Shown: one piece after another, positions 585 to 27,578 of the stretch
Layout: the number at the start of each line of letters is the position of its first letter
How positions within the stretch are numbered: position 1 is the first letter of the stretch
Source of the DNA: Candidatus Zixiibacteriota bacterium
Lineage (GTDB): Bacteria; Zixibacteria; MSB-5A5; DASWLN01
Direction of reading: 5' to 3'
NCBI GenBank assembly: GCA_036396115.1
Contig: DASWLN010000038.1
Location: 1 to 47,429, forward strand
Length of the DNA stretch: 47,429 nt
The notes under the pieces: model-generated
The model's input: only the letters and a program-made list of their open reading frames with translations
What the model was told of the DNA's origin: nothing
Database searches by the model: none
Translations under genes and position numbers: made by a program

Positions 585-2078
585 ATGAGAAAAATCCCCT
601 TACTACTTGCTTTTTTCCTCCTTTTTTTTCATCAAGTCAGCTTCTCTTATCTGTATAACGAAGGCGATTGGACAAGCTACACAATGACGCGCTATGTTAC
701 TTCCATCGCTATGGATGATAGGACAGTTTATTTTGGGACAAGTGGAGGGGTTATACGTTATAACAAAATCGAAAGGGTTTGGGAAGACCCTTTTACCACC
801 AGCGATGGTTTACCAGATAACAGAGTGAACAGAATAGCTTATGACAAAAATGAGGATGTGATTTGGGTTGATACCCCCCTTGGGTTCGCCTCCTACAATC
901 CCACTTTTAAAGAATGGAGAAGGGAAGCTAGTTTTCCTCTGGAATGGGTGAGAAGCGATAGGGATAGTCTGAAATTGCCTGATTTTTTTATGGAGTTTGG
1001 TTATGATTTTTTTCCCGATGGTTATATCCTCGACCAAAGACTTTCCAGATATGACATAACCGACTACCTTAGAGATGATTGGGGAGATAATCTGTGGCTT
1101 GCTACCTGGGGCTTGGGAGTGGCTTTCGGCTCTTTGCGAAGCTGGAACTTACAGCTTTATACTTTTGGTTTATATCAAAATGATGTCAAAGATATTTGCA
1201 TAGATGGGGGCGTAGCCTGGTTTGGCGGAAATGATATTTTTCAAAATAGAGTGGGAATAACCAAATATGATAGAGATAAAGATAAATGGGAATATTTCGT
1301 TGAAGGTTATGAGAATAATCTGGGAAGTGCCAGGGTTAATGCCATACGGGCAAGCCAGAATTTCGTCTGGTTCGGAACTACGCAGGGATTAGAGGTTTAC
1401 AGCAAAAAAAAAGAGGAATGGAGTTTTTATAAACGAGCCAAGGAATTAAGGAACAGCTACATAACCTGTCTGGAGTATTATCGCGGGTCGGATAAAAAAG
1501 ATGAGGGCATCCTTTATGTAGGAACATACATCGGCTTATGCTCTTACAAGGTGAAAAAAGATTCGATTGCCCAATTTAAGGACCAAAATATAAGTTCAGA
1601 GTATATCAATTGCCTGAAACTGTCACATAACTATCTCTGGGTGGGGACTCAAATGGGAACTTATCGTATTCCCCTTGCAGGAGGAAATGCAGGGGTATTT
1701 TCAACTCCAGACGGAATCACGAACAGCAATGTTAACGATATAGAAGAAGATAAGGACAAAGTCTGGTTTGCCACTGATAGGGGAATATTGGGTTACAATC
1801 CAATCACTGAGGAAAGGGAAGTTTATCAGATATCAGGCAACTATCCTGGGAGCCAACCTTTAAGATTGGCGATAGATGGAAAGAATCTCTGGGTGGGGAC
1901 GAAAAACGGGGTGTGGAGGATGGATAAGGAGAAAAAAATCTGGGATAACTTCACTATTTTTGATGGTTTGATAGATGACGAAATCCAGGCTATGGTTTTG
2001 GATGGAGACTACATCTGGTTTGGCACTCCTAAAGGTGCAACCCGGCTCTATTGGAATAATCCCCGTATCTTGAGATGA
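585..2078 (+). CDS. Secreted beta-propeller protein (two-component regulator propeller-like repeats)
   Basis: N-terminal signal peptide. Repeated SDGLPDNRVNRI / VWFGTxxG / LWVGTxxG / FDGLIDDEIQAM blades. Confidence 0.75.
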   Translation: MRKIPLLLAFFLLFFHQVSFSYLYNEGDWTSYTMTRYVTSIAMDDRTVYFGTSGGVIRYNKIERVWEDPFTTSDGLPDNRVNRIAYDKNEDVIWVDTPLGFASYNPTFKEWRREASFPLEWVRSDRDSLKLPDFFMEFGYDFFPDGYILDQRLSRYDITDYLRDDWGDNLWLATWGLGVAFGSLRSWNLQLYTFGLYQNDVKDICIDGGVAWFGGNDIFQNRVGITKYDRDKDKWEYFVEGYENNLGSARVNAIRASQNFVWFGTTQGLEVYSKKKEEWSFYKRAKELRNSYITCLEYYRGSDKKDEGILYVGTYIGLCSYKVKKDSIAQFKDQNISSEYINCLKLSHNYLWVGTQMGTYRIPLAGGNAGVFSTPDGITNSNVNDIEEDKDKVWFATDRGILGYNPITEEREVYQISGNYPGSQPLRLAIDGKNLWVGTKNGVWRMDKEKKIWDNFTIFDGLIDDEIQAMVLDGDYIWFGTPKGATRLYWNNPRILR

Positions 2079-3163
2079 ATATGAAACTAAAACAGGTAGG
2101 AGAGTTCGGCTTAATAGATTTAATAAGAAAAAGAGTCTTCTCCAAAGGGAAAGAAGTAGTCTTGGGCATAGGAGATGACGCAGCCATATTGAAATTGAAT
2201 AAAAGTAATTTACAGCTCTTGACTACTGATGCTTTGGTGGAAAAAATCCATTTCGATTTGGACTACTTCCCGCTGGAAGCGGTTGGCTGGAAAGGGATGG
2301 TGGCGAATTTAAGTGACATTGCGGCTATGGGAGGAGTGCCTAAAGCAGCAGTTGTCACCTTGGGAATAAATAACAGATTCAAAGTGGAGGAGATATTATC
2401 CCTTTGTTCCGGAATATCCAAAGCGGCAAAAAGATTCAACTGTCCCATAGTGGGTGGGGACATTGTTCTTTCCCCTCGAAATCTTTTCTTGTCTATCGCT
2501 ATATTAGGCGAAGTCAAAAAGGGATTGGCAGTCAGAAGAATCGGGGCAAGGGTTGGCGATTTAATTGCAGTTACAGGTGACTTGGGTAGCTCCTCGGCCG
2601 GGTTAGAATATTTAAAATTAAACAAGAAACCACGTTCGTCCTCGCCTAGTGGCTCGCCTCTCGGCGCTCGCCTCTCGGCGAAGCCGAGGGAAGCCGAGGG
2701 AAGCCGAGGGAAGCCGAGGGAAGCAGAGGGCGAAGCCACTGGTTTTGCCAGAAAGTTCCTTTATCCTCTTCCGCGTCTAAAAGAAGCCCAACTCATAACT
2801 CGATTTCTCAAACCAAAAGCGATGATTGACATAAGCGATGGCTTATCCTCAGAAGCTTATCATTTGACTGTGGAGAATGGATTGGGCGCAAATATTTATG
2901 AAAATAATCTTCCGATCAGCAAGATTGCTCTCAAGATAGCAGAAGGGGATAAAAAGAAAGCATTGCATTATGCTTTTAATTCAGGCGAGGAGTATGAGCT
3001 TTTATTTGCCTTCGATGGAACAAGAATCAGTCAATTTCGTAAACTGAGTAGAAAGATAAAGATTAGCATTATCGGCAAGGTAACCAGAGAAAGAAAAATC
3101 AGGTTGACAGAAAGTGATGGCAAATCAAGAAGTTTATCTTATAAGGGTTATACTCATTTCTAA
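2075..3163 (+). CDS. thiL: Thiamine-monophosphate kinase, with an in-frame repeat-derived insertion
   Basis: GEFGLI, GIGDDAA, NLSDIAAMGG, GGD, MIDISDGL and SGEEYELLF motifs. ATGA overlap with the upstream gene. Confidence 0.95.
   Translation: MNMKLKQVGEFGLIDLIRKRVFSKGKEVVLGIGDDAAILKLNKSNLQLLTTDALVEKIHFDLDYFPLEAVGWKGMVANLSDIAAMGGVPKAAVVTLGINNRFKVEEILSLCSGISKAAKRFNCPIVGGDIVLSPRNLFLSIAILGEVKKGLAVRRIGARVGDLIAVTGDLGSSSAGLEYLKLNKKPRSSSPSGSPLGARLSAKPREAEGSRGKPREAEGEATGFARKFLYPLPRLKEAQLITRFLKPKAMIDISDGLSSEAYHLTVENGLGANIYENNLPISKIALKIAEGDKKKALHYAFNSGEEYELLFAFDGTRISQFRKLSRKIKISIIGKVTRERKIRLTESDGKSRSLSYKGYTHF
2641..2742. repeat. Palindromic/tandem repeat inside thiL: (CTCGCCTCTCGGCG)x2 plus (AAGCCGAGGG)x5
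   Basis: 14-mer at 2653-2666 and 2667-2680. 10-mer at 2681-2730; the last copy has one mismatch. Confidence 0.9.
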
Positions 3164-3204
3164 AAGAGGTGGTTAGGGTATGTTAAGAGGCAAGTTGTTT
3201 TTTT

Positions 3205-3478
3205 GTTGGTTCGGGAATTGGAATTCCCGAACCCTTTCGTGTGGGAAATCCAATTCCCACACAAACCAATACAAACGCATTAGTTTACGTTCAATGAATC
3301 TCCCCTCGCCCTCGCCTCGATTCGGCCCGCCTCGGCGAGCCATCGGCGAGACGGGCGAAACGGGCCTCTTTTTCAAAGAGGGGGAAAAGGAGGTCTCCCC
3401 CTTTGAAAAAGGGGGACTTGATGGTTCGATATACTCACCATCCTGAGCAAAGTCGAAGGGAGGGGGATTTTAAAATAG
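3205..3478. repeat. Mosaic of palindromic repeats (TTCGGGAATTGGAATTCCCGAA; nested CCCTCGCCTCGATTCGGCCC... module; GGTTCGA..CTCACCATCCTGAGC..GTCGAAGG)
   Basis: 3309-3359 is identical to 9632-9682. The 3210-3232 motif recurs near 15408-15432. The 3423-3459 motif recurs near 31214-31249 and 45682-45719. Confidence 0.85.
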
Positions 3479-3580
3479 ATTGCATATTGCTCTAATATGT
3501 AACAACATTTAATCCGTTTGCTATAAATCGAGGAGTCTATCTTCCAGAGATTATACTCATTTCTAAAAGGAGGCCAAAGC

Positions 3581-5104
3581 ATGTTAAGAAGCAAATTGTC
3601 TTATCTGCTTTTCGCAATTCTATTTTTGTGTTTCGGCTTAAACCAGCTGTGGGCAGATGAAGGTTCTATTTTTACCAGGCAGAACCTGAGAGTAAATGGA
3701 AAAATTATTGGCAAGACGTACGAAGATTTAAATGGAGATGGTTTAGTTGACTTCTTGGTTTTTTACTTGGAGGGAGAAAATGAAAACCCCAACTCGCCTA
3801 GGGGCGAAGCCACTGGAAGGATGGTCGGCCTTTTCGAACAACAAAAAGGTTCAGGATTTGACAGCATTCCCAATCAAACCTTTGAACTGAATAAAAAGGC
3901 TTCAATTGTTGACCTGGTAGATATAAATAAAGATAATAAAAAAGAATTACTTTTTTTGGCAGATGATGGCATCTATTATTATTCCCTAAATGGTGATTCT
4001 TTCAACAAGGAGTCCTCTTTATTATTCTCAACTAATAGTTTCTTACCCTCTTCAGAAGAGAACATTGTGATATGGGATTTTTGTCCTGATTTCCAAAACA
4101 AAGGTCAACTGGTCATAATTCCCCAGAAGAGAGGGTTTGAAATCTGGACAAGAAACGATCAGGGGGAGTTCGTTCGCCAAGACAAGTTGGGATTCAAGCC
4201 GGATATCTCTCTTTCCAGTAGCCCCGGAGAGTTGAACCAGAAAAGAGGATTAATTCATTTTTCCTATGGAATACCAGGTTTAATCTTTACAGACTATAAT
4301 AAAGACGGTAAGGAAGATATTCTCATTTTAAAAGAAGATAAAATCCATGTTTTTCTCTCGAAGGAAGATGGCTTCTTTGGAGAACAAGCGGATAAAGTGC
4401 TTACCTTGAAACCAAAAGACAACAAAGAGGAGAATATAGATTTCAAAATCGAGGATATCAATGGAGATGGAATAATTGATCTGGCTGTGAACCAATCCGG
4501 TGGAGACCTGGAAAAGGGTTTCAAGAGCAAAATAAGTATATACTTAGGCAAAGAAGGGGAAGGGCTAAACTTAGATTCGCCGCATCAGGTTATCTCTTCT
4601 GAAAAAGAGCAATCCTCTCTTGAGCTTTACGATTTAAATAAAGATGGGAAGGAGGAGATGATCGTATCCGGGGCGGGCTTCAACATAGGTTCAATGATAA
4701 AGATTCTGCTGGCCAAGAGCGTAAAACTTGATTTTGATGTCCGCAGTTTAGGGAAGAACGATATCTATCCGGACCAACCCAATCGTAAAATAAAATTGAA
4801 CATCAAGGTATCATTTGGTAGCTCAGATGAAGACAATTTGGCAATGGACCCCTCCGGGGATTTCAATGGGGATGGCTTGAACGATTTGTTCTTTGCTGGC
4901 GGTGACAATATGCTGAAGTTTTTTCTGGGAAGAAAAGGGGATTTCTTTGCGGATAAGCCCCAACATGAGCTGGGCATAGAGATTCCAGCTGGAAATTGTA
5001 AGATAATAGATCTAAATAACGATAACAAAAGCGACATAATTTTCAGTTTTGGAGATAAAAAGGAATTGAGGGGCAAAATGGTTATCCTCTTTTCCAAGAT
5101 GTGA
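3581..5104 (+). CDS. Secreted FG-GAP/VCBS-repeat protein
   Basis: Signal peptide. Many DxNxDGxxD Ca-binding repeats (DLNGDGLVD, DINKDNKKE, DYNKDGKED, DINGDGIID, DFNGDGLND). GGAGG RBS. Confidence 0.8.
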   Translation: MLRSKLSYLLFAILFLCFGLNQLWADEGSIFTRQNLRVNGKIIGKTYEDLNGDGLVDFLVFYLEGENENPNSPRGEATGRMVGLFEQQKGSGFDSIPNQTFELNKKASIVDLVDINKDNKKELLFLADDGIYYYSLNGDSFNKESSLLFSTNSFLPSSEENIVIWDFCPDFQNKGQLVIIPQKRGFEIWTRNDQGEFVRQDKLGFKPDISLSSSPGELNQKRGLIHFSYGIPGLIFTDYNKDGKEDILILKEDKIHVFLSKEDGFFGEQADKVLTLKPKDNKEENIDFKIEDINGDGIIDLAVNQSGGDLEKGFKSKISIYLGKEGEGLNLDSPHQVISSEKEQSSLELYDLNKDGKEEMIVSGAGFNIGSMIKILLAKSVKLDFDVRSLGKNDIYPDQPNRKIKLNIKVSFGSSDEDNLAMDPSGDFNGDGLNDLFFAGGDNMLKFFLGRKGDFFADKPQHELGIEIPAGNCKIIDLNNDNKSDIIFSFGDKKELRGKMVILFSKM

Positions 5105-7837: not shown

Positions 7838-8086
7838 GTGAAGCCTCCCCCTACGGGGGTTTCCCAAATATAAAAGGCCCTCGGCTTCGCCGAGAGGCGA
7901 GCGAAACTTCGCCCGCCTTAAGCGAGGTTCGCCAAAGGCGACCGAAGCATTCTTTTAAGCCCGCCTTCGTCCCGACATAACGTCGGGACTTCGGCGAGGC
8001 TCACCTCGCCATTTCCGCCAAAGGCGAGACTTCGCCTCTTTGGGGCGAGCATCCGCCTACAGGGGCTTTCTGGCGGAGGCGAGTAA
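7838..8086. repeat. Composite palindromic repeat, family A (expanded copy)
   Basis: Same termini as 452-584, with additional nested hairpins. Confidence 0.85.
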
Positions 8087-9275: not shown

Positions 9276-10000
9276 GTAGAGGTTAGATTTATCCCGCCTG
9301 TGGCGGGATTTACCCGACCTAATGCCTCTCTTAAACCCCTCCTGACCTCCCCTTATCAGGGGAGGAAAACGTTTCGCATCCACCTGACAATTAGGTGAGG
9401 AACGGTTTTTGTCCCCCTGACAAGTGGGTTACAGGGGGTTAACAGTTTGTAGGTCTTGATGCTTCAGGAATAGGAATTTTCCGCTTTTAGCGGAATCTTG
9501 GTGACCCGAACCGTATCGTAATTTCGTGCAGGAATTCCAATTCCTGCACGAACTAAACGCATCGGTACTTCTCCTCCGCCAAAGGCGAGAGATCTTGAGA
9601 CCAATGCCGATACATCAAGAATCTCCCCTAACCCTCGCCTCGATTCGGCCCGCCTCGGCGAGCCATCGGCGAGACGGGCGAAGCGGGCCTCTTTTGCAAA
9701 GAGGGGAACAAAAATCCCCCTTTGACAAAGGGGGAAAACAGGGGGATTTTATGGTTTGCAGGTTTTTCCGGTTTGCGGATTATTCTGATGTTTCGGGAAT
9801 AGGAATTCCCGAAGGCACCTCCATCGGCATTTCTCCTCCGCCAAAGGCGAGAGATCTTGAGACTAATACCGACGCATCAAACGGGGTAAGCAATGGCTGC
9901 GCCGTTGCTTCTTTGGGAACGGTGCCGTAAACCATGCGGTTCATGGCGGTGCCATGAACCAATGCGGTTTATGGCGGTGCAACCGTTCCCTACCCGCTGC
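9276..10000. repeat. Large intergenic mosaic of nested palindromic repeats
   Basis: Contains the 17-bp TCCCGCCTGTGGCGGGA insert (9292-9308), DUF559-end-type hairpins (9336-9365, 9717-9748), 59-bp direct repeats (9560-9618, 9822-9880) and tandem 22/23-bp micro-inserts (9925-9974). Confidence 0.85.
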
Positions 10001-18681: not shown

Positions 18682-19650
18682 ATGAATAATCATCCTCAAC
18701 TTCCCTCGGCCTCGCCGAGAGGCGGGCGTCGAGAGACGAGTCCGCAGGTCTCCATAATTGTTCCAGCTTACAATGAGGCAGAAAACATACCTCTTCTCAT
18801 GGAGAAATTCTCAAGAATGTTTCAGTCCTCCGGCCTAAAAGGAGAGGTGATTTTGGTTAATGACGGTTCCACGGATAATACCTTGGCTCAAGCTAAAACC
18901 TGTCAAGAAAAATATGGTTTCTTAAGAGTTGCCTCGCACAAGGTTCGAAAGGGAATAACAGATGCATTGCTAACTGGATTTAGTGATTCGCAAGGAGAGG
19001 TTTTCGTATTCTGGCCAGCTGACCTGCAATATCTGCCGGAAGATATACCTCATATGATAGAGAAGATAGACCAGGGTTTTGATATAGTTACCGGCTGGAA
19101 ACAGGGGAATTATGGGTTAAAAGGGTTTGTGTCTTTCTGCTATAACCTCCTCTCCCGCATTCTGTTTGGTATAAGAGTTCACGACTTGAATTCGGTTAAA
19201 GCTTTTCGCCGAGATATTTTCGAGGATGTAACTCTGCGCAAGGATTGGCACAGATATATGGTTGTCTTAGCTGCGGAGAAAGGATACAAGATCGCAGAAG
19301 TCAGGGTGAAGTTATACCCCCGCAAGTATGGAAAATCGAAATTCGGTTTTTGGCGAATCCCCATAGGGATACTGGACTTATTCAGCGTTAAGTTCCAGCT
19401 CTCTTTTTTGAGAAAGCCGATGCTCTTTTTTGGATTTTTGGGTTTGGTATTATTTTTTTTGGGAGTGGTAGTTGCTGGTTTGGCGCTTTATCTAAGATTT
19501 ATAGAACATGAAGGTTTTAGGCCGCTTTTGTATTTGGTTATCTTGCTTGTGCTTTCAGGCATCTCATTTTTTGCCTTGGGATTTCTGGCTGAAGCCATAG
19601 TGAGCTTAAGGGAAGAGTTGAGAGATATCAAAAACAAACTGATCAAATAG
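18682..19650 (+). CDS. GT2 glycosyltransferase (ArnC/polyprenyl-phosphate glycosyltransferase-like)
   Basis: SIIVPAYNEAENI, VNDGSTD, ADLQ, DIVTGW, two C-terminal TM helices. GC-rich insert near the N-terminus. Confidence 0.9.
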   Translation: MNNHPQLPSASPRGGRRETSPQVSIIVPAYNEAENIPLLMEKFSRMFQSSGLKGEVILVNDGSTDNTLAQAKTCQEKYGFLRVASHKVRKGITDALLTGFSDSQGEVFVFWPADLQYLPEDIPHMIEKIDQGFDIVTGWKQGNYGLKGFVSFCYNLLSRILFGIRVHDLNSVKAFRRDIFEDVTLRKDWHRYMVVLAAEKGYKIAEVRVKLYPRKYGKSKFGFWRIPIGILDLFSVKFQLSFLRKPMLFFGFLGLVLFFLGVVVAGLALYLRFIEHEGFRPLLYLVILLVLSGISFFALGFLAEAIVSLREELRDIKNKLIK

Positions 19651-25571: not shown

Positions 25572-27403
25572 AAGATGCAACTTATCCTCGTGAGAAAAGA
25601 AGTGCAATTCTGATTTCTATTCTAGCCATTTTGCTTTCGTTGCTGATTATCCGTGTTTTTGGTCTTGAGGTGATAAGGGGTACATACTATCGCCAGATGT
25701 CCGAGGAGAACAGAATCAGGCCTGTTCCTTTGCCGGCTCCTCGCGGTCTTATCGTGGATAGAAATGGGAAAGTTATTGTCTCCAACCGTGCCTCCTATAC
25801 TGTTTCCATAATTCCCTATGAAGTGAGGAATCTAAAGGAGGTGGTGGGAAGGTTAAGCCCTCTTCTTCAGATAGATGCAGATGGTTTAATGCAAAGGATT
25901 AAGGACAATTGGTCCAGAAGGTTTGAGCCAATTACCATTAAAAGAGATGTTGATTTCACAACCATATCTATTCTGGAAGAGCAAAATCAGGACTTCCCCG
26001 GAGTTATCTACCAGGTAGTGCAAACTCGAAAATACCCTGAAATAAGAAGCATCTCGCACCTGATTGGGTATGTCAGCGAGATATCAAGTCAAGAGTTAGC
26101 TAGCTTGCCCGCTCAGAGATATAGAGTCGGCTCATATATTGGCAAGAAAGGCATAGAGAAGCAATATGATGACCTCTTGAGGGGAAAAGATGGGATGTTG
26201 TATCTGGAAGTAAGCGCCATCGGCAAGATATTGGGTGAGCTTAAGGACAAGGAGCCCGACCCTCCTGTGGCTGGCTCAGATATCAAGTTATCCATCAATT
26301 TTGACTTACAGAAGTTAGCTGATTCCCTGTTGGAAAAACATAGTGGCGCTACCCTGGTTGCCCTGGATCCAAATAGTGGAGAGATTCTGGCTCTGGTGAG
26401 CAAACCCGGATTTGACCCTAACATCTTTGCCGGGGTTTTAACCCCGGAAGAGTGGAATAGTTTAAGCCAGGACCCTAATCATCCCCTTCTGGATAGAGCT
26501 ATTCAAGGCACCTATCCCCCTGGCTCCACTTTGAAACTTCTGACTGCGGGTGCGGCTTTGGAGACGAAAGTGATACAGCAGGAAAACTCTTTTGCGAGTT
26601 GTGTAGGAGGTTATCGTTTTGGGAATAGGATTTTCAAGTGTTGGCAGGAAAGAGGGCATGGTAAGTTGAAATTGCACGAAGCGATGGTCCAATCCTGCGA
26701 CGTTTATTTCTATCAATTGGGTTTGAAGGTGGGATTGGAAAATTGGTGTCATTATGCTGGGCTCTGCGGTTTCGGTGAGAAGACAGGTATTGATTTACCG
26801 GAGGAGGCTAAGGGTTTCGCTCCCACACTTTCCTATTTTATCAAGAGACATGGCAAAGGGGAATGGGTGAAAGGATTGGTCATCAACTTAGCCATAGGGC
26901 AAGGTGAGATTTCAGCTACACCTTTACAAATGGCAACATTCTACGCTGGATTAGCCAATAAGGGGATTATCTTTAAACCCCATCTTTTAAAACAAGCTAT
27001 CACCCCATCAGGAAAAGTCTTTGTCACCAAGACGGAACAGCTCATCAAGTTGCCTTTCTCTCCTGAGACTCTGGATACTTTGAATCAGGTTTTGATTGGT
27101 GTGGTGAATGAGCCATTCGGCACTGGTGGTGCATCCAGGCTTGCGGACGTAACTGTGGCTGGCAAAACCGGTACTGCGCAGAATCCATTTGGTGGAGACC
27201 ATGCCTGGTTTATCTGTTATGCTCCGGCTGAAGCCCCCCAGATAGTCCTGGCTCTTTTGGTGGAGAATGCCGGTCACGGAGGAACGATAGCCGCTCCTAT
27301 TGCCAAAAGAATACTGCAAGCTTTTTTTGAAAAGAATAAAGAACTCCACCCACAGGGCGGGGTTCTAAACCCAAATCGAGATCCCGAATCAAGTTCGGGA
27401 TGA
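25568..27403 (+). CDS. mrdA: Penicillin-binding protein 2
   Basis: APRGLIVDRNG, YPPGSTLK (SxxK), QSCDVYFY (SxD), AGKTGTAQ. Confidence 0.95.
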   Translation: MKDATYPREKRSAILISILAILLSLLIIRVFGLEVIRGTYYRQMSEENRIRPVPLPAPRGLIVDRNGKVIVSNRASYTVSIIPYEVRNLKEVVGRLSPLLQIDADGLMQRIKDNWSRRFEPITIKRDVDFTTISILEEQNQDFPGVIYQVVQTRKYPEIRSISHLIGYVSEISSQELASLPAQRYRVGSYIGKKGIEKQYDDLLRGKDGMLYLEVSAIGKILGELKDKEPDPPVAGSDIKLSINFDLQKLADSLLEKHSGATLVALDPNSGEILALVSKPGFDPNIFAGVLTPEEWNSLSQDPNHPLLDRAIQGTYPPGSTLKLLTAGAALETKVIQQENSFASCVGGYRFGNRIFKCWQERGHGKLKLHEAMVQSCDVYFYQLGLKVGLENWCHYAGLCGFGEKTGIDLPEEAKGFAPTLSYFIKRHGKGEWVKGLVINLAIGQGEISATPLQMATFYAGLANKGIIFKPHLLKQAITPSGKVFVTKTEQLIKLPFSPETLDTLNQVLIGVVNEPFGTGGASRLADVTVAGKTGTAQNPFGGDHAWFICYAPAEAPQIVLALLVENAGHGGTIAAPIAKRILQAFFEKNKELHPQGGVLNPNRDPESSSG

Positions 27404-27432
27404 CAAGAACCGAATCAAGTTCGGGATGACAA
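27379..27432. repeat. Tandem CGTC-type palindrome CCGAATCAAGTTCGGGATGACAA x2, overlapping the mrdA stop
   Basis: Identical 23-mers at 27384-27406 and 27410-27432. Confidence 0.85.
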
Positions 27433-27578
27433 AAACCGTAAAACCAAACCCTGTTGTCATCTGGTCTGTTTTTCTCTGTTTCCAAGAGAAGCACCTTTCG
27501 TCGCCGTCCACGAACACGGGGTTTTCAGGTACGATCTTGATAAGATCTCTTAATTTACTTGGAATTCGGTAAGGAGAA

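Follow-up and report, generated by a model that had tools for sequence, protein, structure and literature searches.

An in-frame nested stack of 24-nt repeats in the thiL gene of a Candidatus Zixiibacteriota bacterium

Several described systems of short repeats resemble the one that we report here. MITEs are 70-300 bp long, with terminal inverted repeats and a target-site duplication. The SDR4, SDR5 and SDR6 repeats of the Nostocaceae, which Elhai and colleagues reportedly described in 2008, are said to be hairpins of 21-27 nts, nearly identical within a family and nested in other repeats; we know of no transposase for them. A passage in PMC10969869 presents RPE-1 to RPE-10 (Ogata et al. 2000, 2002) as palindromic inserts that lie in frame in Rickettsia housekeeping genes. 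Intragenic REPs have been found in uvrA, uvrB, dnaE and other genes, which gain 20-82 extra residues (Di Nocera et al. 2013, PMC3733652). Here we present a real and well-documented case of nested repeats inserted in frame into an essential gene, thiL, of a Candidatus Zixiibacteriota bacterium. It lies in a stretch of 47,429 nts (contig DASWLN010000038.1 of assembly GCA_036396115.1), which we refer to as the window. With high probability, the thiL insert consists of nested copies of a hairpin repeat that is GC-rich, only 24 nt long and spread by copy-and-paste.

The gene and the parts of its insert are as follows, with positions numbered from the first letter of the window.

2075-3163, + strand: thiL (thiamine-monophosphate kinase, a vitamin-B1 gene), intact and insert-bearing, by Pfam AIRS (8e-26) and AIRS_C and by orthologue alignments
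2641-2742, + strand: the whole in-frame thiL insert, 102 nt or 34 codons, with peptide SPSGSPLGARLSAKPREAEGSRGKPREAEGEATG, absent in orthologues
2641-2652, + strand: CTCGCCTAGTGG, left half of the outer 24-nt unit; the unit in thiL of a related genome (locus L021) has an identical left half
2653-2680, + strand: two 14-mers (CTCGCCTCTCGGCG twice), the left arms of the nested inner units, from Tandem Repeats Finder
2681-2730, + strand: five 10-mers (AAGCCGAGGG four times, then AAGCAGAGGG), the inner right arms and surplus copies
2731-2742, + strand: CGAAGCCACTGG, right half of the outer 24-nt unit; the thiL unit of L021 has an identical right half

In ThiL, the insert peptide SPSGSPLGARLSAKPREAEGSRGKPREAEGEATG is flanked by AGLEYLKLNKKPRSS and FARKFLYPLPR; ..AGLEYLKLNKKPRSSSPSGSPLGARLSAKPREAEGSRGKPREAEGEATGFARKFLYPLPR.. 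is a stretch of the thiL translation. The insert has 70.6% GC versus 40.0% for the remainder of thiL, a composition foreign to the host gene. Tandem Repeats Finder reports 2.1 copies of the 14-mer at 100% identity (2652-2680) and 5.1 copies of the 10-mer at 97% identity (2680-2730), and the fifth 10-mer is a variant, GAAGCAGAGG. This 10-mer array is the longest of its type in the genome, and its count of five is read from one assembly, the sole carrier of this allele. The initial annotation had described a palindromic repeat translated inside thiL, with CTCGCCTAG at 2641-2649 and GGGCGAAGCCACTGG at 2728-2742 separated by 78 nt; all of these sequence statements hold, as does the direct joining of the same halves at 3793-3816 in the FG-GAP gene downstream. 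Tandem Repeats Finder also agrees with its account of the 78 nt as mostly a doubled 14-mer and a 10-mer repeat that together keep the frame. Its bounds for the element, 2633-2742, have to be corrected to 2641-2742. In the window the shared 15-mer has two copies, where 0.04 are expected, and none of 100 shuffles reached two matches. The FARKFL that lies 3’ of the insert is host sequence, which in orthologues appears as LVRKHL or LARKFL. We considered the downstream GCCAGAAAGT as part of the element and rejected it, as it is host sequence conserved in a relative without the insert (L023). No Rfam family matches the thiL insert, and the neighbouring intergenic cluster gave chance-level matches only. 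The 102-nt insert has no match in a plasmid collection, a result to which the low-complexity filter may have contributed, and the right junction between thiL and the unit was not found in JGI metagenome contigs.

In all 15 ThiL orthologues from genomes of the same order, it is exactly these 34 residues that are missing. Amongst 115 Zixibacteria ThiL proteins, 110 have a short loop at this place; the remaining five comprise three with Lys-rich indels of 2-5 residues, P0002 with 8 more residues, and the window protein with 34 more. P0002 is the ThiL of the NCBI Zixibacteria MAG GCA_022866245.1, locus L021, and the protein search turned up no relative nearer than this. That thiL gene is 91% identical to the one in the window in protein and 90% in DNA, and the two loci are syntenic (M20 peptidase, PorZ-like propeller, thiL, FG-GAP). 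At the same codon, the L021 gene has a single 24-nt unit, CTCGCCTAGTGGCGAAGCCACTGG, which encodes SPSGEATG (+8 aa). Two more distant loci, L022 and L023 (82-83% identical), have an empty site in thiL, and no target duplication is found at the thiL site when it is compared with empty sites. The outer 12+12 nt of the window insert are identical to the L021 thiL unit; therefore the extra 78 nt entered the centre of a resident unit. Since the three states (empty, 24 nt and 102 nt) form a series of orthologues, they can be used to order the events. From the alignments, the thiL unit is older than the split from L021 (dS ~0.36), and the 78-nt growth, the unit in the FG-GAP gene and the intergenic repeat clusters at 456-584 and 3164-3565 are younger and specific to the window lineage. 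Two proposals of the initial annotation are borne out by this series: that the thiL segment is an insertion, as it is missing in the same-order orthologues and in the 110 short-loop proteins, and that it expands the motif carried by the neighbouring FG-GAP gene, as L021 has only the 24-nt unit that the window has split by 78 nt.

Units of this kind are not confined to thiL. Others within the window are the following.

3581-5104, + strand: gene of an FG-GAP repeat protein (Pfam FG-GAP_3, 3e-30), with 92% identity to the L021 orthologue and 88% to that of L022
3793-3816, + strand: a single 24-nt unit, CTCGCCTAGGGGCGAAGCCACTGG, in frame in the FG-GAP gene (+8 aa), read as NSPRGEATG
18693-18740, - strand: two units nested into a 48-nt stack, which is translated as part of the N-terminal tail of a GT2 glycosyltransferase (18682-19650)
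7878-7901, - strand: a 24-nt unit between genes, part of a larger mosaic repeat

At the FG-GAP site, L021 and L022 are empty, with TCCAA followed directly by AAGGATGG, versus CCCAA[24 nt]AAGGATGG in the window. By this comparison, the FG-GAP unit is a precise 24-nt insertion without target duplication. With the stack translated, the N-terminus of the GT2 glycosyltransferase reads MNNHPQ[LPSASPRGGRRETS]PQVSIIVPAYNE, versus only about 9 residues ahead of VSIVVPAxNE in its orthologues. A further gene, on contig C168, has units in frame at two sites of a TPR-PBP linker, in reverse orientation. Four genes of the window genome (thiL, FG-GAP, GT2 glycosyltransferase and TPR-PBP) thus have in-frame units, and the stacks in coding sequence are 24, 48, 48 and 78 nt long. 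Elsewhere, a composite containing the unit lies in frame inside queA (locus L138, Pfam 9e-132). The two primary sites have no conserved target motif. We rejected a preferred reading phase for the inserted units; the outer units use phases +1, +1, -0, -1 and -1.

The 14-mer and the 10-mer of the array together make one 24-nt unit, CTCGCCTCTCGGCG followed by AAGCCGAGGG, which is a sister of the outer unit. Inner and outer units both fit the pattern CTCGCCTNNNGGCGAAGCCNNNGG, and the variable triplets are complementary in each. This pattern has 30 matches in the genome, a MAG of 194 contigs that is 65% complete, versus 0 for a reversed control. Described by their numbers of 14-mers and 10-mers, the 29 stacks are of seven types: (1,1) with ten cases, (2,2) with ten, (2,3) with four, (2,1) with two, and (1,2), (2,4) and (2,5) with one each, the last being thiL. 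Types (1,1) and (2,2) make up 20 of the 29 when the diverged stack C168:32626 is taken as (2,2), and 19 under automated scoring, which assigns it to (2,1) with 38 nt instead of 48. The same stack, which is in frame, explains why the automated count of stacks with a length not divisible by three is nine; we count eight, all intergenic. Twenty-five of the 29 stacks are away from long ORFs or touch an ORF only at its edge. Read in all six frames, the inner subfamily (CTCGCCTCTCGGCGAAGCCGAGGG) is free of stop codons, and the outer subfamily with its TAG is closed in two of them. These repeats are a dispersed palindromic family that resides in frame in several genes, as the initial annotation had proposed by likeness to RPEs.

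Stacks with equal numbers of left and right arms are what results when one unit nests in the apex of another. In other phyla, heterologous stacks (L032, L043, L076, L077 and L083) have inner and outer units that differ from each other, each of them self-complementary. In L077, a U unit of the inner subfamily (CTCGCCTCTCGGCGAAGCCGAGGG) is nested in an M unit of the outer, TAG-bearing subfamily. These heterologous stacks prove nesting. Stacks are also found outside Zixibacteria in L057. The nesting site in the heterologous cases is between positions 14 and 15 of the recipient in six and between 12 and 13 in one; thiL, C22 and the copies of the C115 type nest between 12 and 13, which is equivalent to between 13 and 14 through a shared base.

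A different route to the same arrangement would be that the inner 78 nt were copied from a ready-made composite by short-tract gene conversion or template switching. A composite of this kind is present at C22:665-718, where outer 12 nt, an inner (2,1) stack and outer 12 nt follow one another with the junctions laid out as in thiL, and composite (2,2) stacks are found at about 10 loci. However, the outer halves in the window match the thiL unit of L021 (TAGTGG) and not C22 (TAGGTG), the 65%-complete genome has no (2,5) donor, and the homology arms would be only 12 nt. We regard copying from a composite as unlikely, and we favor the landing of units directly in the resident thiL hairpin.

All units have GCGAAGC at positions 12-18, which form the apex of the stem-loop. 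For 32 distinct unit variants with three free stem pairs, the stem covariation is 0.19 versus 0.065 in shuffles, and none of 500 shuffles is as high. In the same 32 variants, 87.5% of the cells are paired, versus 23-54% in slid controls. The stem-loop of the unit is thus conserved. The folding energy of the whole thiL insert speaks against the hairpin stack in that it does not stand out from shuffles of like composition (z of about -1.3 to -1.5), and we relied on the covariation. The oligonucleotide d(GCGAAGC) forms an extraordinarily stable DNA mini-hairpin, as described by Hirao and colleagues (review PMC13037366). That mini-hairpin is a biophysical structure and not a repeat family, and the unit shares its motif at the apex. 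The GCGAAGC apex suggests that the unit acts as folded single-stranded DNA.

The distribution of the unit is patchy. The pattern is absent from the 200 other genomes sampled from the phylum, such that 1 of 201 carries the unit. In a scan with one genome per species, more than 119 loci elsewhere are amongst the matches listed; for 18 fixed bases we estimate about 17 chance matches in that scan, assuming equal base frequencies. Also amongst the matches listed, Omnitrophota, Desulfobacteraceae, Nitrospira, Planctomycetia and Oscillochloris have many copies per genome. A cultured carrier of the unit is Oscillochloris trichoides DG6 (locus L066). On these matches, the family spans Zixibacteria and at least five other phyla. 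The unit sequence was not found printed in the literature that we searched.

Concerning the host protein, ThiL has kept its domains and motifs. It has an AIRS N-domain and an AIRS_C C-domain, the Asp-rich motifs and the ThiL fold; the invariant columns GDDAA, NLSD and DISDGL are retained, and a ThiL sequence in the PDB matches at 3e-43. An AlphaFold2 model built with the 115-sequence alignment has a pTM of 0.81 and a pLDDT above 90 over most of the chain, and the best Foldseek match to this model is the Aquifex aeolicus ThiL 3c9u (TM 0.87 by target). The pLDDT drops below 50 only at residues 21-23 and 186-219. The second of these stretches is the insert, which the model puts between helices 170-180 and 215-222 and which by sequence maps between residues 172 and 181 of 1vqv. 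In agreement with a suggestion of the initial annotation, the insert is predicted to be a disordered inter-domain loop in an otherwise confident ThiL fold. By the architecture of the PurM superfamily, we infer that this loop is probably solvent-exposed and remote from the active site. Other ThiL proteins, too, have small natural indels in this inter-domain loop.

A comparison of the window with L021 gives a dN/dS of 0.13 for thiL; the FG-GAP gene has 0.11 and the upstream gene 0.12. The value for thiL indicates purifying selection since the first insertion, and as far as sequence can show, the gene is still functional. In the genome, which is 65% complete, we see a single thiL. Ser, Pro, Gly, Glu and Arg abound in the insert peptide. 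As the unit is largely stop-free and has a length divisible by three, and as its peptide is disordered, ThiL tolerates the insert as a passenger. Nothing indicates that the insert serves ThiL.

A functional role has been considered in two forms, either with the 10-mer array as a contingency (phase-variable) locus, or with the insert recruited as a functional loop of the protein or as a hairpin that regulates the mRNA. The unit of 10 nt is not a multiple of three and lies inside coding sequence, and paralogous copies have anywhere from one to five 10-mers. Loss of frame in thiL by slippage of the 10-mers, as raised in the initial annotation, is plausible judging from those copy numbers, and the arithmetic given there for one 10-nt unit is correct. 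As a contingency locus, though, thiL would be costly to switch off, since it is a single-copy housekeeping gene here. A co-opted loop is at odds with a sister lineage that functions with 8 extra residues only, with most relatives having none, and with a peptide predicted to be disordered. A regulatory hairpin could be read from the folding of the insert RNA at -59 kcal/mol, but a terminator scan finds no terminator-like site at the insert. Altogether we consider a role of either form very unlikely.

With still less credence, the array or its copy number could come from mis-assembly of a repeat with many loci, as the 14-mer/10-mer arrays are found at more than 20 loci of a fragmented MAG with 194 contigs. 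This is extremely improbable because the independent assembly GCA_022866245.1 has the outer unit at exactly that codon, both flanks are collinear thiL, the frame is preserved (which an arbitrary error in copy number would manage one time in three), and the 50-nt array is probably shorter than typical reads and assembly k-mers. Finally, a low-complexity expansion of native thiL by slippage alone, without a mobile repeat, could be imagined for a region made of tandem repeats, and we give it next to no credence, as identical 24-nt units and 14+10 stacks are found at about 30 unlinked loci and in other phyla, and the empty sites in relatives contain no seed sequence.

For the nested stack of mobile hairpin units, we propose a history in three steps. 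In the first, which the orthologue series shows, CTCGCCTAGTGGCGAAGCCACTGG entered thiL in the common ancestor of the window and L021 lineages; the entry was precise, with no target duplication, and the loop between the N- and C-domains gained 8 residues. In the second, in the window lineage alone, units made of CTCGCCTCTCGGCG and AAGCCGAGGG would have landed at the apex of the resident hairpin. The outcome of this step can be read in the window, and its mechanism would be that units of the sister subfamily nested in one another, such that the 14-mer became doubled. In the third, replication slippage would have added the surplus 10-mers. Among paralogous copies the 10-mers number from 1 to 5, while there are never more than two 14-mers, so that slippage is probably the best explanation for the surplus. 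In an essential gene only lengths divisible by three would survive; 78 nt qualifies, and the unit itself has such a length.

The unit inserts precisely as 24 nt and at hairpin apexes, its stem is conserved, and its activity has been spread over time in the lineage. Its movement would most likely be as a folded single-stranded DNA hairpin, acted on in trans by an enzyme that may be of the HUH/Y1 type. The 65%-complete genome has five Y1_Tnp (PF01797) ORFs; no unit lies within 2.5 kb of them, and each is flanked by unrelated hairpins of its own. An all-against-all clustering of the ORFs within 2 kb of the units, at 119 foreign loci and in the window genome, found no protein family enriched near units, only generic families.

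The thiL locus provides a natural stepwise record of a mobile repeat that lengthens an essential enzyme without breaking it, under purifying selection throughout. For annotation, it means that a low-complexity loop in a protein of an uncultured bacterium may stem from a repeat insertion of this type and should then not be taken for a lineage-specific functional motif. The 10-mer array is a mutational liability, a potentially unstable tract in a single-copy vitamin-cofactor gene. An identical unit is found in distant phyla with no tag, duplication or linked transposase, and what moves such tiny hairpins is a tractable question. A wider reading, which we offer tentatively and hold to be possible though somewhat improbable, is that the 24-nt unit with the GCGAAGC apex represents an undescribed class of ultra-small, codon-compatible mobile DNA common to several phyla (Zixibacteria, Omnitrophota, Desulfobacterota, Nitrospirota, Planctomycetota and Chloroflexota). 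Members of this class would make no target duplication, prefer hairpin apexes including those of their own copies, and grow by self-nesting; being largely stop-free and of a length divisible by three, they would act as a generator of disordered loops in essential proteins. If so, thiL, with its passage from an empty site to 24 nt and on to 102 nt, would provide the first dated record of the process, and the patchiness of one genome in 201 would make the enzyme findable by phylogenetic profiling. The main value of the locus lies in the three-stage orthologue series and in the pointer to an unexplained cross-phylum 24-nt hairpin element.

Compared with the known systems, the family shares some features with each. 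With bacterial intragenic tandem repeats and contingency loci it has in common a 10-nt tandem unit, not divisible by three, inside coding sequence; in contrast to them, the array here is a by-product of a nested palindromic element in a housekeeping enzyme. MITEs are different, as the unit is 24 nt long and makes no duplication at the FG-GAP or thiL site. The likeness to REPs is in a palindrome of 20-40 nt with a high copy number, mostly intergenic and often in mosaic clusters. However, neither the REP/REPIN tag GTAG/CGTC (PMC3733652) nor its complement is found in CTCGCCTCTCGGCGAAGCCGAGGG or CTCGCCTAG(G/T)GGCGAAGCCACTGG. REPINs are inverted dimers, whereas the units here form nested stacks, and a REPtron, in which a RAYT is flanked by the repeat, differs from what we find in this 65%-complete genome, where the Y1 ORFs are not flanked by units. 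RPEs, as far as the cited passage describes them, are alike in being dispersed palindromic repeats, in frame in unrelated genes, that leave the host proteins intact with a fold-compatible loop. By that description they are also set apart, being about 100-150 bp long with a conserved peptide and confined to Rickettsia, whereas the unit here has 24 nt, nests in itself and is found in Zixibacteria and other phyla.

The unit seems to resemble most the cyanobacterial SDRs, with which it shares a 24-nt hairpin unit, nested heterologous stacks and a covarying stem. Relative to SDR4, SDR5 and SDR6, the sequence is probably different and the host phyla are different, and the orthologue series here documents that units reside in frame in essential genes and that they grow at the hairpin apex by nesting in themselves. 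In-frame REPs and RPEs being already known, the thiL insert, though a clear case, has precedents.

Compared with L021, the syntenic locus of a sister MAG, the window carries two further repeat clusters between genes close to thiL, and a third gene with a stack of the 24-nt hairpin unit lies farther along.

456-584: GC-rich repeat cluster of 129 bp, in the gap separating the stop of the M20 peptidase gene from the start of the PorZ-like gene
3164-3565 (with 3122-3201 and 3525-3602): mosaic palindromic repeat cluster of ~400 bp, in the spacer between thiL and the FG-GAP gene
18682-19650: GT2 glycosyltransferase gene, its N-terminal tail holding a reverse-oriented nested stack of 48 nt that has diverged (LPSASPRGGRRETS)

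The 129-bp cluster occupies a junction at which, in L021, the M20 peptidase stop directly joins the PorZ-like gene start (TAAATG). The thiL / FG-GAP spacer is 15 nt both in L021 and in the relative L022, without the ~400-bp palindromic cluster. The window's lineage has thus gained at least four repeat insertions within 5 kb, all after its split from L021. The ~400-bp cluster is bracketed by a diverged duplication (~80 bp, 74-82% identity) of the junction formed by the thiL 3' end, the RBS and the FG-GAP start, which has left behind a decoy start as well as an ORF of 88 aa (3180-3446, MLRGKLFF...). In the GT2 gene, there is no other start codon downstream of the 48-nt stack; in its orthologues, VSIVVPAxNE is preceded by ~9 residues.

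The native thiL flank immediately 3' of the insert (2743-2760) is CTCTTGCCAGAAAGTTTC in the insert-free relative L023. It matches at 17/18 positions, with one indel, the left end (CTCTGCCAGAAAGTTTCG) of a larger intergenic element that hosts unit stacks:

C23:16283, C115:11293, C46:1997: copies compared with the thiL flank

GCCAGAAAGT has only 8 occurrences genome-wide. The likeness may reflect a target cue, or chance.

The unit is also found in other organisms. In L138 (3640-3730), a unit-containing composite (CCCGCCAGCAGTAGCTGGCGAGGTCTCG + unit + CCTTTGGCGGAAA) lies in frame within queA, a full-length Queuosine_synth match, and its flanking modules occur in the window's genome too. In one Omnitrophota MAG, many contigs start or stop 25-100 nt from a unit within gtcattctgcgg...ccgcagaat; the unit-bearing repeat is evidently very abundant there and fragments the assembly.

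L027, L044, L045, L051, L078, L085, L090, L099, L136: loci of that single Omnitrophota MAG

Two more short tandem arrays in the window, a 28-mer x2.2 (9920-9980) and a 26-mer x2.1 (27384-27438, reading CCGAATCAAGTTCGGGATGACAAAAA), are members of other repeat families in this genome, which also has five Y1_Tnp (IS200/RAYT-like) open frames:

C183:777-1145
C139:4438-4782
C40:6532-6762
C152:5238-5423
C186:5640-5807

Several of these are flanked by perfect hairpins of their own, bearing no relation to the 24-nt unit, as with aaaggcgatgataattatcatcgcctttatga on either side of the C152 copy.
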